From positions 64,001 to 128,000 of the IMG/VR virus record IMGVR_UViG_3300029374_000001: a stretch of DNA of 64,000 nt. One strand, 5' to 3'. Under the pieces are notes generated by a model. That model ran no database searches. It saw only the letters and a list, made by a program, of their open reading frames with translations, and had not been told where the DNA came from. This document shows, piece by piece, positions 6,599-63,526 of the stretch (the stretch's first letter is position 1; each line of letters starts with the position of its first letter). A program made the position numbers and the translations under genes. This stretch comes from a virus.

Positions 6599-6740
6599 AG
6601 GATACCTCCTTTTTGAGCGTATTTCAATAGCTTTAGCTTCGATTACTACTATGTTAGTATGGGCACTTTTGCACTTGACATAGTAGTAATCCGGCATATA
6701 GATGCCGTTATAATTTTGAGAAAGGGGGTATATTATTGAA

Positions 6741-55203: not shown

Positions 55204-55242
55204 AATTTTCATATTATTTTCAAATGAAAGGATATGTGCTAT

Positions 55243-58200
55243 ATGGCAACATCTATTGAAAAACTTGTTCCTCTTCGTTTGATGAAGACCAAACTTAAAT
55301 ACCCTACAGATCTTAAAGATCGTTATAAGGGTAGTGTTGTCTTCTTACTGACAAAATCTATAGATGGTTCTATAGACTTCTTAAATACCAATCAGTTCTT
55401 AGTGAATAATAAAACATTCTTGTCTTATTATATAGAGAAAGACTATACGTTTTATTTAGAATCTGCCGAAGAACCAAGAGATCATATGGTTGATTCTGTA
55501 TTAGAATCCTCTATGGGAGAACTCAATACTCAATATAATAATATATATGTGAAATCTGATTCAGCTACCTCTTTCTATCCAGATGCAGCACAATTGATTG
55601 CTATGAATGAAGATTTCGGAATCAATCAAAATTATCCCAATATATTTAGACGATTCTTATATAACGAACGCATCAAAAATCAAAAAGAAGCTATGACTCT
55701 TTATAAGAAGATCAAAGCTTCTATTGATTGGATTAAGTATACATACATTAATCTTTCTATCTATAAAAGAAAGAACTTAATTGTCGATTGGTCATATTAT
55801 GCAAATCTGTTCTTTAAGAATAATGAATTATATATCAGAGATAAAGGAATTGATCTGTTACATCATATGATGACAAGATATCTGAATGATGCTAGATTAA
55901 CTAATGAAGGATATAGCAGAAAGACAGTTATTATTCCAGTCAACGAATGGTGCAATGGAATCGAAGATAAAGTATTATTTGACTTTACTAAAAATATCAA
56001 TCCATTCTCTATGATCTTCCGTTTAACCAAACAAAAGAAAATATTCCCAAATGAATGGGAAGGAATTGATTTTATCGTTTGCTCTAAGAATGCTTATTTC
56101 AAAATAGACTTAAATAATTTCAGCATCAAAGAACTGGTTAGGTTTGTATACTTAACCAAGAAGTTAATTGCTAATGAAATTGCCGATGCAGATACAACGG
56201 ATGATGAAGAAACCATTGTAACTTCCGGATTAACCCAGAATAAAGAATTGTCTGGTAAAGATACAGAATATGTAACAGTCAAAGTTTCTGATGATGAAAA
56301 GAAAGAAGAAATTGTTGACGTTGCTCCAGAGCATAAAGAACCTATCGTTAACCCTGATGAAGACTGGTTAAAATCTGTCGTTGCTGATTTAGATGAGAAT
56401 TCTAAAGATACAGTCAAGATCAATGAAGCTAGACAAAAACGTATGGAAGAATTAGACAAGACATACGATAATACAGAAATTCATGGTAAGAAAGTTAAAA
56501 CAATCTTAGAGAACTACTATACCAAAGACAGATCTTTGAAGTCCGAACCTATTCCGATTGACTCTATCAATGAAGAATGGAAAAATATATCTTCATTAAA
56601 CTTAGAGAAGTCATACGATATTGATGAAGATATTGTTGCTATTCTTAAATCATTCCGATATAAATCCAGACCATTATCTATTGTATCTATGAAGATGGAA
56701 GATACTTCGACCAATATGGACTATGTCAATACATTGACTGTAGTAATGGAAGATGCTTATGGAACCAGATCCACTATTAAATTGGATATTCCTAAGTTTA
56801 TCAATCATCGGTTTATGAAACTAAGAGGAAACTTAAAAACTATTGCTGGTCAGTTAATCTTAATGCCTATCATTAAAACAGATGAAGATACAGCACAGAT
56901 TGTTACCTCTTATCATAAGATCTTTATTTACAGAATCAATCCATCCAATGGTTCTAAATCAACCAAAGGGGTATCTAAGCTAACCAAAGCTCTAAGTAAA
57001 CTAAATACAATAACTTCTAAATTGGAAGTATTTGAAGGAGATAATAGTTTTATCTGTTCTAAATATGAATTGCCAATCGAATATAGAGATTTGGCTGGTT
57101 TGTATTCCAGAATCAATTTAGGAGATGGAAGTTATGTGACGTTTGATTATGATAAAGCATTACAGCTTCCTACTGATAATAAGTATGATCAAGCAAAGCA
57201 TATTATATTTGGCTTTGATAATAAAACTAAGAAAGCAGTATATGGAGATAAAGAAAGATTATCTTTTGATATTGGAAATTTCTTAGCTTCTAAAGATAAA
57301 GCTTTTGGCGATCTCTATGTAAGTACAGTACCGTCTAATAAACTTTCTTATTCTGAAGCATCTATTATGAATACGGATATTCCTGTAATTATTTTGATGG
57401 CTTTCAGTGAAGGTTTACAGAAAGCGATGGATAAATCTAAGATTAAATATCGCTTCTCTGAAAAGAGACCAAAAGCAACAGATACAGAATCTGTTATTCG
57501 TTTTTCTGATGGATACATCATATACAATGATGAACACCCAGAAGATTCTCTATTAATGACTGGATTGACTAAGTGTGATTTGAGTTCCTATTCTATTAAA
57601 GATATTAATAGCAAATCTATGTGGTTAGATATCTTGGATGACTTTGGCGGACGTATCAAAGCAGATGGTTTAGATAACTTCTATGATTGCGAATTTGACC
57701 CTATGTCTATTGATATCTGTAAGAGAAAGAAGATTCCCTATGATTATATAGAAGCTTTAGCCTATGCTAATAAACTCTTAGCTTCTACGGAATATAACAA
57801 GCATGCTGATATTTCTGGAAATAGAATTAGAACTAATGAAATCTTAGCAGGATACTTATATCAAGTATTGGCTAATGCCTATGGAGATTATGCCAGCAAG
57901 TCTAAGAGAGTGGGTAAAGGAGTTAAACTCTCTATTAAACAATCTGCGTTAATAGATGCTCTTATGAAAGATCCCGGATTCTCCGATTTATCTGTGTCTT
58001 CTCCTTTATTAGAAGCAGAAGCTGCTACATCTGCATCGTTTAAAGGATTGTCTGGTATGAATGCGGATAGAGCATATACCTTAGATAAACGAGTATATGA
58101 TGAATCTATGCTTGGTATTCTGGGAGCATCTACAGGGTTTGCAGGTAATGTTGGTATTACCAGACCAATGACTATCAATGCGTCTATTCAGAATAGCAGA

Positions 58201-59535
58201 GGATTAATGGATCCTAAAAGGCCAAAAGATCTGAATACATTAAATACGTTAACTATATATGAAGCATTGACTCCTTATGCTACTACCCATGATGATCCTA
58301 TTCGTACAGCTATGGGATTTGTTCAGACAGTTAAACACCAGATGAGAGTTAAATCTTCTTCTCCCAGTTTAATTACATATGGCATGGATGAAGCTCTTCC
58401 TTACTTTACAACCGATATATTCTCCCATAAATTCAAAGGAGTTAAAGGCAAAGTATTAGACGTCAATGATGAATTTATTATTTATGAAACTATTGATGAA
58501 GATGGAAATAAATCAAAAGAATTTGTTGATTTGTCCGATCATACAATGAAGAACTCAGATGGTGGTTTCTATGTCACAGTTAAATTAAAGCCACAGGTTA
58601 AGAAGGGTCAAACTCTAAAGAAGAATGATATCTTAGCCTATGACCCAACTTCATATTCTCCCACTGTAGCTTCTGATAAGAATTCTAAAAATATTGCTTA
58701 TAATGCTGGTACATTAGCAAAGATCGCTATTATGTGTACTGATGAAGCATATGAAGATTCTTCTATTATCAATACAAGATTAGTAGATGCATTAACTTCA
58801 TTCTATGTAGTAGAAAAATTGTGTTCTTTAGATGCACACTCTAATGTATTCTCTTTAGCAGAAATTGGTAAACCTATTCAAGAAGGATCTCCTTTAATTG
58901 TATTCCAGAATGCATTTGAAGAAGAAGATGCTAATAAACTTCTTAAGAATATCAATGATGAAGAATTAGATGCTATTACAGATTTTGGTCGTATTCAAGT
59001 TCATTCTAAATTAACTGGTATATTACAAGATATCAAGATTAGAAGAACATGTGAACTTTCCGATCTGTCTCCATCATTAAAGAAGATTGTTACTCAATAT
59101 GAAAACGGTATTAAAGCTAAAAAGAAAAAGCTCTTATCTGCTGGAGTAAATCCAATAGAAGTAGAATCTATGTTAGAATCTACAGAAAAGATGCTTCCTG
59201 AGGGTAAACTGAAAAACACACCAAATGGTGTTATGTTTGAATTCTATATCAAATGTAGAGATAAAATGGGTGTAGGAGATAAGTTAACCTATAATACAGC
59301 CATCAAAGGTGTTGTTAAGGATATTATACCAGATGGTAAAGATCCTTATACAGATTTCAGAAAGAATGAACCTATTGATGCTTTATTAACTTCTGCATCC
59401 GTTAATGCTCGTATGGTTCCCTCTGTTATGATCTCTGGGGCTTTGAATAAAGTCTTAATTGAATTATCTAGACAATGTAAAGAAAAGTTAGGTATTCAGT
59501 GGACTAACTTAGAAAACAAAAACAATTTAGATTAA
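55243..59535 (+). CDS. RNA polymerase beta subunit, highly divergent (1430 aa)
   Basis: [29 protein letters not shown] corresponds to beta ..[41 protein letters not shown] corresponds to GDKLAGRHGNKGVISKI.P. Start chosen at ATG 55243 (MATSIEKL). Confidence 0.7.
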   Translation: [1430 protein letters not shown]

Positions 59536-60864: not shown

Positions 60865-61734
60865 TTAAAAAGTATTTGTTTCTGTCATGATATTTTCTAT
60901 ATGAATCTTTAGACTATTTGTCGATTCATCATAGGTAAAATAAAATAGATATCCATTTCTGGTAAAGAATTTAAAATTTTCTATATGCGCATGAGCGATA
61001 TGAACGTCATTAAAATCCTTCACATCAGATTCTCTTAATTTAAAATGAGAAAAAAGCTCTCTAATTCTTTCGAAATCTTCCTTAGTTGTAAATCTTTCGA
61101 TAATATGCATCCCAAACCCCTTATATCCAATAGGTTTGAACACCCCATCATCGTCAAATTCGATTCTATACACTTCTCCCGTGTACTTATACGTGGGCAG
61201 CACAGATTTCTCTATTAAATCGTAAAAATGGTGAATTTCGGAATGATCATTACTATGAAGAAGTTCATCTAAAAGATCGGACGTTAATATATCATATGAG
61301 TTTATCACAACTTCATTCATGATATTTTCCAATAAATCGTCAGACTTTACGAAATGAAAATCTTCATCAAAGTTTCCATTTTCTATATTTCTTTCTTTTT
61401 CTATATAAGGCGGAATGGTGTAAAACTCCATTTCATTTTCGGAATCATATAAAATATCCCAAGTTCTATTACTATAAATGGCCGTTATGACTATACTAAA
61501 CTCTTCTTTATATTTCTCATATCCATTCATTAATGTAAAAAAGTCCGGAATGCTATAAGAAAAAAGTACAATATGATCTTCTTTATGATTTTCGGAACGA
61601 AAGATATCTTCTAATTTATTCATAAGATCAAAATATGTAACGCATATATCATATACTTTTCCAAGTCTATTAAGAACTAACTTATTATTTTCAAAAAATT
61701 TCGGTAATACAAAAAGCTCAATCTTAGTCATCAT
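60865..61734 (-). CDS. hypothetical acidic protein (289 aa)
   Basis: ORF track. Confidence 0.5.
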   Translation of the reverse strand: MMTKIELFVLPKFFENNKLVLNRLGKVYDICVTYFDLMNKLEDIFRSENHKEDHIVLFSYSIPDFFTLMNGYEKYKEEFSIVITAIYSNRTWDILYDSENEMEFYTIPPYIEKERNIENGNFDEDFHFVKSDDLLENIMNEVVINSYDILTSDLLDELLHSNDHSEIHHFYDLIEKSVLPTYKYTGEVYRIEFDDDGVFKPIGYKGFGMHIIERFTTKEDFERIRELFSHFKLRESDVKDFNDVHIAHAHIENFKFFTRNGYLFYFTYDESTNSLKIHIENIMTETNTF

Positions 61735-62382
61735 AGTTCTCCTTTTATAAAAAACGCAAGATAATCATTCTAAAAAACTTAGAATGATTATTCAAGTGTC
61801 ATCATATCTTCCAAGATTAAAAAAACGCCATATGATTTCTCCATAAATTATAAAGGAGTTTTATATATTTATCATTCGCAATATTCAAAAATTTTCAAAA
61901 AATTCGGAAAGGCGATAATCTTCCTATAATTTTTCGGAACATTTTAAACTTTCAAAAACTTCGAATACCTAGCTAACGCCTTTACGAAGTATATGGGGCT
62001 ATCGCCCATATACTTCTAAAACATATCTCTTATATCTTTTAATTTTATTCTTTATTACAGCGCTCCGCTCCCTCTTCGTAGTTGGATAGCGGAACGCTTA
62101 TATTAAATGGAACTCTATATGCTTTCTTTATAATTTTTATAATAATTTTAAAATTCCAAGTAATTCTTTTAAAACTTGGAATAATTACTACTTCTATTTA
62201 TCTTGGAAAATATATACTAACTTCGTTATTTCTGTTGGAATAAGAATACATTCCTGATTTTTAAATAATTTCTTCAGTTTTTCTTTTTTTTTTAATTTAT
62301 TGGTAAATTTTAAACTATCATTTTAATTTTAAAATTGATACAACATATTTGTAATTTTGAAAATTTTGCTAAAGACTATAAT

Positions 62383-62620
62383 GGCCATAAGACCTCTATA
62401 GGCTCAACGGAATACCACGTACATTAAATACCGAATCACTCGCCTACGGCTAATCACAGATAAAGCTCAGCATCGCGCAATCCGCTTCCCTGCTCCTTGT
62501 CGCTCTGCCATATGGTTTCGTTCCGGACTTCCCCTGAAACATATCCTCGCTGCCTCGCTCGGATACCCGTCCTACACTCAACTACCCTCCGGGGGAGGGG
62601 GTTTTTAGGGGGAGGGGGGA
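62383..62620 (+). other. GC-rich, pyrimidine-biased non-coding island ending in a G-quadruplex-capable G5-A-G5-TTTTTA-G5-A-G6 tract and a CCCTCC-GGG-GGAGGG hairpin with T-run
   Basis: Read from sequence. Composition contrasts sharply with the flanking AT-rich DNA. The only ORF here (minus 62454..62651) is low-complexity and lacks an SD. Confidence 0.4.
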
Positions 62621-62755
62621 AATTTTTTAAAATTAAAATATAACTAAACATATTTTAAGTCGATTTTTGATAATTTTTGAAAAATATACGCAAATTGACA
62701 TCTGAGTATAGACTCAGATGTGATTTCTATTGTTAAAAGGAGGAATTGATAGTAT

Positions 62756-63526
62756 ATGAAAAGCTTGTTGATAGGATTTGAGGGATTAGATGCCAGCTAT
62801 AAACATACTAATGCGGAAGCATTGTATGATCATTTAACAGATGTATATGATAAAGCCATTCGAGCAGATCATTTAAAAATAGAATTGGTTTCTTTTCCAA
62901 GATATAAACATGCCTCCTCTTGGTTTGTCAGAGAATATTTAAATGGTCATTACAATCGTTTTATGATGGATTATGATCAGGTTATATTTCCCAGGCAGTC
63001 TAAGTTGAAACAAGTATCTATGTTTTTCTTGGCAGATATGATTGACTGGTATAGTGATGCATTAAGACGAGGGTTATTTATTAAGAATCATATTATTATC
63101 TTTGATCGCTATATATATTCTATGATGTATTACTTAATTCCAGAGATCTATGCTAAGAAAGAACATCATTATCAAAACTACTTCGAACGATACTTACATA
63201 CCATCAGAGAGAATCCAATGTATGAAGTATTGCCTAAGGTAGATATCTTACTAAAGATGATTACTTCTCCTGATGCTATAGAAAAAGGAATTAATAAAAG
63301 AGGAAGAACCAAAGATAGATATGAAAAGAACCTACAGTATCTGAAAGACGTCAATACATTCTTCAATGGATTAGATTTAAAAGAAGATCTGAATAATACC
63401 AACTATAAAGGATTGAAACACCAATTCGAAATCGATACGGTAGATAAAGATCCAGAAACTATATTTAACGATATATTAAAGAAGATCAATCCAATAGTCA
63501 ATCGATTTGATAAACGAAAGTGGTGA
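62756..63526 (+). CDS. thymidylate kinase family protein (dNMP kinase) with degenerate P-loop
   Basis: LIGFEGLDASYKHT corresponds to IVIEGLEGAGKTT (Gly residues of GxxGxGK replaced by A/S/Y). IIIFDRYIYS is the DR(Y/H) motif. LKMITSPDAIEKGINKRGRTKDRYE corresponds to the LID [22 protein letters not shown]. Very strong SD AAAAGGAGGAATTGATAGTAT-ATG. Confidence 0.6.
   Translation: MKSLLIGFEGLDASYKHTNAEALYDHLTDVYDKAIRADHLKIELVSFPRYKHASSWFVREYLNGHYNRFMMDYDQVIFPRQSKLKQVSMFFLADMIDWYSDALRRGLFIKNHIIIFDRYIYSMMYYLIPEIYAKKEHHYQNYFERYLHTIRENPMYEVLPKVDILLKMITSPDAIEKGINKRGRTKDRYEKNLQYLKDVNTFFNGLDLKEDLNNTNYKGLKHQFEIDTVDKDPETIFNDILKKINPIVNRFDKRKW

Follow-up and report, generated by a model that had tools for sequence, protein, structure and literature searches.

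Several described systems come close to the locus reported here. In mitochondria, a G-quadruplex (G4) at CSB II (conserved sequence block II) stops the polymerase, and the transcript, anchored as an R-loop, primes DNA synthesis (PMC4176368; PMC3488243). Polymerases of the AR9 type read their promoter in the template strand and also accept single-stranded DNA, and the late-promoter consensus of AR9 is quoted as A-11ACA-(6N)-TA/G+1 (PMC7598289). Intrinsic (Rho-independent) terminators, in which a GC-rich stem-loop is followed immediately by a U-run, close the small-RNA genes of bacteria and phages, and the C-rich small RNAs of Firmicutes (RsaE/RoxS type) pair with Shine-Dalgarno sequences through UCCC motifs. 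Here we describe a GC-rich island at positions 62383-62620 of a 64,000-nucleotide (nt) stretch of viral DNA (positions 64,001 to 128,000 of IMG/VR record IMGVR_UViG_3300029374_000001; hereafter the window, from whose first letter its coordinates are counted), which resembles each of these systems in part. Most likely, the island is a small-RNA unit of the phage, and its G-quadruplex end is unusual and under selection. In its specific form, which we favor tentatively and with somewhat less than even confidence, it would be a stand-alone non-coding transcription unit of the plus strand, whose predicted transcript (62353-62628, about 255-275 nt, delimited by a promoter-type box and a terminator-like end) would be C-rich and G-poor up to 62590 and would close in a hairpin or a G4. 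The source is an uncultured jumbo phage with a genome of about 260 kb, a distant relative of AR9 and PBS1; contigs of 259.5-260.7 kb were found for the island-bearing phage, and two of the samples carry Human Microbiome Project labels.

A preliminary description of this DNA, made from its letters alone, had pointed to a GC-rich island in AT-rich surroundings, and this proved correct, as the island has a GC content of 54.6% against 32% for the window as a whole. It is the sole stretch above 0.5 GC in the 64 kb, and in 120-nt windows the GC fraction peaks there at 0.61 (window mean 0.32, standard deviation 0.049). The body of the island (62383-62590) has 52.4% GC, 60% pyrimidine on the plus strand and a C/G ratio of 2.21, and its 75 C per 208 nt is the maximum of the window (mean 36.6, standard deviation 6.7; +5.7 standard deviations). 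The plus strand had been called strongly pyrimidine-rich; an excess of pyrimidines is indeed present, but the wording slightly overstates what is actually a bias of C over G. Four of the nine runs of five or more G or C in the window fall in 62591-62619. An island lies at the same place in three lineages, namely the window type (L001-L006, L015, L016, L028, L034 and L035), the L007 type, whose RNA polymerase beta-like protein is 88% identical to that of the window in amino acid (aa) sequence and whose left contigs (L007, L008 and L017) were joined to its right contigs (L022 and L023) through the 11-nt overlap GTGGGGGTTTT, and the L025 type, whose kinase, encoded beside the island, shows 40% aa identity. 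Three further lineages (L011, L040 and L041) carry the promoter-type box and the G tracts without a GC-rich body, and there the unit is inverted relative to the polymerase and kinase genes.

Judged from these comparisons, conservation within the unit is strongest in the G tracts. In the window, the module G5-A-G5-TTTTTA-G5-A-G6 occupies 62591-62619 on the plus strand and is followed by AAATTTTTT (T-run at 62623-62628). It has the form of a canonical G4 motif (at least four runs of at least three G, with loops of 1-7 nt) and is the only one in the 64 kb, the looser G3 definition included, where shuffled sequences give an expectation of 0.025. To our knowledge, AT-rich phage genomes almost never hold G runs by chance, and RNA G-quadruplexes are reportedly depleted in bacteria. 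The tracts read G5 A G5 T5A G5 A G6 in the window, G5 T G5 T4A G5 A G5 in the L007 type, G5 AA G5 TA G4 T4A G5 A G6 in L025, G6 T G4 TTCGTAA G4 TA G6 in L011 and G5 AT G5 TTCTA G5 TA G8 in L040, and those of L041 are similar to the last. All six lineages retain four or five G runs of length four or more, and the interrupting bases vary (A, T, AA, TA, AT). Since the loop bases drift while the G-run lengths persist, selection appears to act on quadruplex potential, and neither on a specific pairing sequence (GGAGG/CCUCC) nor on a hairpin alone. U-rich sequence follows the module on its 3' side in five of the six lineages (window, L025, L011, L040 and L041; not in the L007 lineage).

Overlapping the module is a GC hairpin, CCCTCC-GGG-GGAGGG (62585-62599, plus strand), which our scan calls terminator-like and which is followed by GGTTTTTA (five T at 62602-62606). 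Stem-loop and immediate U-run together have the form of an intrinsic terminator, and the L007 lineage has an equivalent. In L025, the hairpin reads CCTTCC...GGAAGG, with C>T compensated by G>A, and its stem lies 5 nt away from its U4. The preliminary description had proposed the G4 motif, the overlapping hairpin and alternative pairings of CCCTCC with the GGAGGG copies, and all of them are present as claimed. When folded with ViennaRNA including its G4 term, the plus strand gives -51.6 kcal/mol for the quadruplex against -16.8 kcal/mol for the hairpin, and the G4 is thus predicted to be far more stable. The two structures are mutually exclusive in the window and the L007 lineage, whereas the fifth tract of L025 lets both coexist. 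The resemblance to the intrinsic terminators of small-RNA genes is that a GC-rich stem-loop with a U-run ends a short non-coding unit with a putative promoter of its own; the difference is that the 3' arm of the phage stem belongs to a conserved array of four G tracts, which would be expected to out-compete the hairpin.

Some further features of the G tracts vary among the related sequences. In L011 (10990-11110), L040 (1410-1500) and L041 (about 1005-1095), perfect mirror-repeat purine/pyrimidine arms flank the four C/G tracts, and each arm is also capable of forming a hairpin; by sequence, these arms have H-DNA (triplex) potential, whereas the window lineage has none. The lengths of the G, T and A homopolymers in 62591-62628 differ by one base among genomes that are about 98% identical (L003, L004, L016, L028, L034 and L035), which may be either true length variation or homopolymer error. 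A twin G5NG5, a short AT spacer and a second twin G5NG5 were also seen in non-coding DNA of the unrelated AT-rich viral contigs L059, L124, L125 and L135 (IMG/VR, 31-39% GC), whereas in L099 a similar repeat codes for a glycine-rich (GGGGFL)n peptide. A degenerate four-G-tract scan of IMG/VR returned, among the matches listed, mainly poly-G artefacts at contig ends and GC-rich phages.

Upstream of the G tracts lies the promoter-type box AACATATTTGTAAT (62342-62355, plus strand), which fits A(-11)ACA-6N-TA(+1) and places the predicted start at about 62353. The AR9 late consensus is matched by AACA TATTTG T A (62342-62353) in the window, by the same letters in the L007 lineage, where the whole box is identical, and by AACA TAAATT T A in L025, where the box reads TAACATAAATTTAAT; L011 and L040 have TACA at -11 to -8. 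Across lineages, the 14-nt consensus is (A/T)ACAT(A/T)TTTGTAAT. In all six lineages the box stands upstream of the G tracts and always in the G-rich orientation, with a box-to-module distance of 248 nt in the window, 251 nt in the L007 lineage, about 207 nt in L025, 91 nt in L011 and 76 nt in both L040 and L041. The core ACAT-N4-GTAA occurs six times in the window, at 6654 (-), 6678 (+), 8250 (+), 34162 (-), 59633 (+) and 62343 (+), and half of these copies sit 38-63 nt before start codons on the same strand (P=3.8e-4). The box is also found 45-60 nt upstream of a giant lysozyme/M23 gene in L009 (4586, -), L031 (5635, -) and L032 (5468, -). The extended box ACAT-N4-GTAA(T) is probably this clade's own promoter type, and we infer that the copy at the island acts as a promoter. 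It fits the consensus of the late promoters of the non-virion RNA polymerase of AR9/PBS1 and lies, in this clade, at the distance of a 5' untranslated region (5'-UTR) from genes; the RNA polymerase beta of the clade is most similar, at about 30% aa identity, to that of phages of the PBS1/AR9 type. However, the phage box is longer (ACAT-N4-GTAAT) and has T at -11 in some lineages, and AR9 needs uracil at -11/-10, whereas this phage encodes ThyX and its DNA may contain thymine.

Because box, variable body and G-tract module occur together in six lineages, with the U-rich run in five of them, they can be regarded as one portable unit. On the window, this unit would correspond to transcription of the plus strand from about 62353 to 62600-62630. 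The body of the island is itself conserved. Its 3' half (62488-62577) is 85-88% identical between the window and the L007 lineage, about the same as the RNA polymerase beta gene, whereas the neighboring 289-aa gene reaches 65-75% and the remaining intergenic DNA 40-60%. On this evidence the island is a real, conserved, non-coding element under purifying selection. The preliminary description had dismissed the minus-strand open reading frame at 62454-62651 as spurious, and rightly so, as 1-nt and 2-nt insertions or deletions disrupt it in the L007 lineage (88% aa identity). An open plus-strand frame across the G tracts has no start codon with a ribosome-binding site (Shine-Dalgarno/ATG), its differences are nearly all non-synonymous (judged by eye, without a formal count), and its peptide shows no similarity to L025; it encodes ...GFLGGGGK, which is reminiscent of the glycine-rich (GGGGFL)n repeat protein of L099. 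We rejected a small coding gene, given that start codon, synonymous bias and conservation are all missing. The homologues, which according to the preliminary description might have revealed a degraded coding remnant, show the opposite.

Alignment also supports structure within the body. Of the helices predicted from the alignment, helix B (62469-62509) is a 12-pair hairpin in which all cells are paired in five distinct sequences, with one compensatory change from G-C to A-U. Helix A (62515-62582) is long and irregular, with a 2x2 internal loop that is conserved and a tip hairpin at 62541-62566; it contains three consecutive compensatory pairs (62515-17 GTT / 62580-82 AAC, changed to ACA / TGT in the L007 lineage), its stem substitutions never disrupt pairing, and its tip loop is variable (GC, GT, AT). 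In total, six pairs show two-sided changes, including one each in helix B and the terminator hairpin, a number reached by none of 500 shuffles and compared with 0-2 in slid controls; 94% of the helix cells are paired, and there are no pair-breaking stem substitutions. A further hairpin predicted from the alignment close to the 5' end (CTATAA.GGCC/GGTC.TATAG, 62378-62399) is kept in the L007 lineage, where one of its pairs changes on both sides and three cells are broken. The L025 body shares the GC-rich, C-over-G composition of the window island but is unalignable to it. Among the candidates listed in the preliminary description, a non-coding RNA is the best supported, in view of the purifying selection, the compensatory stems, the lack of a conserved reading frame, the box upstream and the terminator-like end downstream.

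The mechanism that we propose for this plus-strand unit is as follows. Initiation near 62353 at the box of the AR9 late type (AACA-6N-TA) would give a C-rich, G-poor RNA with two conserved hairpin domains (62469-62509 and 62515-62582). Its end, with four G5 tracts, could fold in two ways, either as the GC hairpin with U5, that is, a classical intrinsic terminator, or as a very stable G-quadruplex with the second U-run. This module would halt the polymerase and cap the 3' end of the RNA. We infer the synthesis of this RNA and the formation of the G4; more weakly, the pyrimidine-rich body might pair, through CUCCUU/UCCC-type motifs, with G-rich targets, ribosome-binding sites for example, and what the RNA acts on is a matter of speculation. 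The C-rich small RNAs of the RsaE/RoxS type offer a parallel, since the phage RNA is predicted to be short, has CUCCUU/UCCCC motifs and would end in a terminator, and this phage uses AGGAGG ribosome-binding sites. The difference is that the phage RNA matches them in neither sequence nor structure (no Rfam match) and has no target in the window, where a search for perfect matches to the plus-strand RNA found none of 14 nt or more. The conserved island 12-mer GCTCTGCCATAT (62502-62513) is exactly complementary to 16167 (-) and 44886 (-), both of them within genes of the minus strand; as chance alone would give about two 12-mer matches in total, these sites are unremarkable. If the unit is real, a five-tier G4 has been kept over six diverged lineages despite loop drift and orientation flips, which would point to selection on the quadruplex itself. 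It would then be a natural phage transcription unit closed by a G4-or-hairpin switch, and would provide a defined pair of promoter and terminator for the multisubunit RNA polymerases of AR9-like jumbo phages, enzymes that are poorly understood.

A number of observations weigh against a plus-strand transcription unit. Upstream of genes, the loose AR9 consensus AACA-6N-T[AG] shows no enrichment, and we rejected it as a general promoter; enrichment is confined to the extended box. The last structure and the U-run are not directly adjacent in L025 and the L007 lineage. The clade that carries the unit is narrow, and lineages L031-L033, with an RNA polymerase beta identity of 54-63%, have neither the island nor the G4. 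The covariation amounts in effect to one independent comparison, essentially with one divergent lineage, and the compensatory changes are for that reason suggestive and not conclusive. Folding statistics point to the other strand, as three lineages give minimum free energy (MFE) z-scores of -2.7, -3.6 and -3.3 for the minus strand but of +0.2 to -1.2 for the plus strand, and it is only in the minus sense that the 2x2 loop of helix A becomes a tandem G.A/A.G and that several G.U pairs exist. Nevertheless, the same Watson-Crick helices also make up the minimum-energy fold of the plus strand, so that structure alone leaves the strand undecided. We gave the transcription signals more weight than the folding statistics, and the plus strand is favored on that basis. 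It is tempting to speculate, by analogy with AR9-type polymerases, that a structured minus strand might serve as the template, which would reconcile the plus-strand signals with the folding bias of the minus strand.

One alternative is a structured minus-strand RNA running from 62645 to about 62370, in which a purine-rich fold follows two C5UC5 tracts and the RNA acts through its C-rich 5' end, with one tract free in a short AU-closed loop and the other paired with GGAGGG. We consider such an RNA unlikely. Besides the z-scores, the tandem G.A loop and the additional G.U pairs, it is favored by a sigma-70-like sequence, TTCAAA-18-TAAAAT, at 62681-62652 (in the L007 lineage, one can read a similar TTCAAA...TAGAAT), and by short AU/GC stems that close the second G5AG5 tract, a C-rich loop in the minus sense, in three lineages. 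However, the minus strand has no box of the phage type, and the scan calls no terminator on it. The variable loop bases and persistent run lengths of the tracts indicate that the G runs were selected and not a C-rich pairing sequence, and it is solely in the G-rich orientation that box, module and U-run (the last missing in the L007 lineage) are ordered as a unit in six lineages.

The likeness to CSB II raises the question of whether the plus-strand transcript might serve replication. A transcript from the box, stopped by a G4 of RNA or of RNA:DNA hybrid, would be anchored as an R-loop and prime DNA synthesis; as a replication origin of this kind the island seems rather unlikely. Downstream of a promoter-type box, the non-template strand carries at the module a G5AG5-7 tract with T's after it, and a G4 is predicted beside a U-run. 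The near-identical core GGGGGAGGGGG, repeated and followed by T-runs, nearly equals the CSB II sequence GGGGGAGGGGGGGTTTG (PMC4176368; PMC3488243), which likewise stands downstream of a virus-type polymerase promoter. The phage unit differs in that it is doubled, with four G5 tracts that make an intramolecular five-tier G4 possible, in that it overlaps a classical hairpin terminator, and in that the polymerase would be a multisubunit jumbo-phage enzyme; the likeness is confined to the sequence level. The position of the island is also in keeping with an origin, as gene polarity changes over there and the cumulative GC skew reaches its within-window minimum at the same place, but the polarity switch by itself would also explain the skew. 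A phage RNase H gene lies nearby, and a GC-rich transcribed segment amid AT-rich DNA would stabilize a hybrid. On the other hand, the RNA made in the orientation of the G tracts would be C-rich, and R-loops are formed least readily by RNA(pyrimidine):DNA(purine) hybrids; moreover, a GC-rich body is missing from the L011-type units. Short repeats (TTGGAATA-like) are conserved in the nearby non-coding DNA of four lineages, with many direct repeats in L011. Three or four repeats resembling TTGGAA(T/A)A lie in the spacer (62083-62097 / 62175-62243 area) and likewise in L007, L025 and L011, and the motif TTGG(A)TAGCG in the same area is kept across lineages; these short elements could be iterons or operators. 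We think it quite unlikely that the box-G4 unit is the clade's replication-priming element in the full sense, a phage counterpart of mitochondrial CSB II at whose twin G5NG5 the phage's own multisubunit RNA polymerase would be stopped; such an element might exploit the ability of an AR9-type polymerase to read structured single-stranded template DNA.

The same transcript might instead be a long 5' leader of the gene downstream. The island sits within a 1-kb intergenic gap that separates two divergent genes, and the right-hand neighbor (62756-63526, plus strand) is a deoxynucleoside kinase/thymidylate kinase-like gene, the first gene of an operon with ThyX. In three lineages the unit is co-oriented with this operon and lies 130-160 nt upstream, and where hairpin and G4 are mutually exclusive, as in the window and the L007 lineage, the choice between them could set read-through, as in an attenuator. 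Nevertheless, this reading is improbable, and it is contradicted by the inverted units of L011, L040 and L041, which point away from the kinase gene and lie 1-1.4 kb off. There is also no riboswitch match, and two other elements intervene between the unit and the gene. One is a second, imperfect box-like motif, AACATATTTTAAGT (62647-62660, plus strand), which precedes the kinase operon outside the unit proper and has counterparts in the L007 lineage and L025. The other is a perfect 10-bp hairpin, ACATCTGAGT-ATAG-ACTCAGATGT (62698-62721, plus strand), in the 5' region of the kinase gene about 35 nt before its start, which has hardly changed in L025 or in the L007 lineage, although the aa divergence is 40%, and which may serve as an operator or belong to the 5'-UTR.

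By far the least probable is that the G tract marks a packaging site or a physical end of the genome, or that the island is a decayed gene or DNA of foreign or mobile origin. This reading is largely refuted, for although at least ten contigs from several assemblies (L005, L006, L007, L008, L015, L017, L022, L023, L026 and L027) begin or stop within about 40 nt of the G tracts (window 62568-62606) and a perfect 15-nt inverted repeat surrounds the island in the window, the site is crossed by contigs of 259.5-260.7 kb, and by one of 215.8 kb, at differing internal coordinates (about 146, 161 and 222 kb in the three spanning contigs with a known coordinate), the ends are ragged across about 40 nt, the inverted repeat is missing from the L007 lineage, no other copies occur in any collection searched and there is no coding signal. 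The clustered ends and the 11-nt overlap had also suggested a cos site, an idea that we dropped in view of the ragged ends and of the full-length contigs running across this position. A miniature inverted-repeat transposable element or other mobile element was likewise rejected, as the flanking repeat is found in the window lineage only and the island is present in a single copy per phage contig. The simplest explanation of the contig breaks is a sequencing or assembly dropout at the G4-forming hairpin; as a sign that the quadruplex folds, the breaks would be indirect at best. As the site repeatedly breaks metagenomic assemblies, such elements would be under-represented in contig collections.

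The plus-strand unit, as far as the sequence searches go, belongs to no described RNA family. Rfam 15 gave no gathering-level match in the window or in eight related loci, and at E<=10 the three lineages with an island (window, L007 and L025) gave merely unrelated, mutually inconsistent weak matches, so that the riboswitch-like or other known RNA class considered in the preliminary description found no support. ARAGORN detected no transfer RNA or transfer-messenger RNA in the whole window, in agreement with that description. BLAST of the island and its 9-kb surroundings found no match in GenBank phages, and the island had none in plasmids. Exact 19-21-mers occurred in IMG/VR, the JGI metagenomes and the GTDB genomes in the same phage clade only, apart from chance matches, with the scans of JGI metagenomes and GTDB genomes each based on one 19-mer. 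Horizontal acquisition from a foreign source and a packaging role, both raised earlier, are not supported, the former for want of copies beyond the clade (GTDB genomes, JGI metagenomes, plasmids and GenBank phages) and the latter because full-length contigs span the site.

Regarding the wider surroundings, the RNA polymerase beta-like gene is encoded as a single chain at 55234-59535 (phrog_3148), and the closest cultured relatives (about 30% aa identity) are Bacillus phages of the PBS1/AR9 type, Staphylococcus phages of the S6 type, Listeria phage LPJP1 and Yersinia phage phiR1-37. More distant relatives have other GC-rich, hairpin-rich non-coding islands at the corresponding place upstream of kinase/ThyX (L042, 2106-2348; L032, 14590-14760; L040, 1929-2075), which show neither an Rfam match nor a G4. 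In the gap itself, a smaller second GC-richer patch (61960-62100) contains a 12-bp hairpin (61981-62021) and the inverted repeat AGCGCTCCGCT/AGCGGAACGCT, with partial conservation in L007. The left neighbor of the gap is a 289-aa gene without an assigned function (60865-61734, minus strand), and immediately upstream of it lies a 13-bp hairpin, ATAATCATTCTAA / TTAGAATGATTAT, at 61761-61791, of which L007 has an equivalent.

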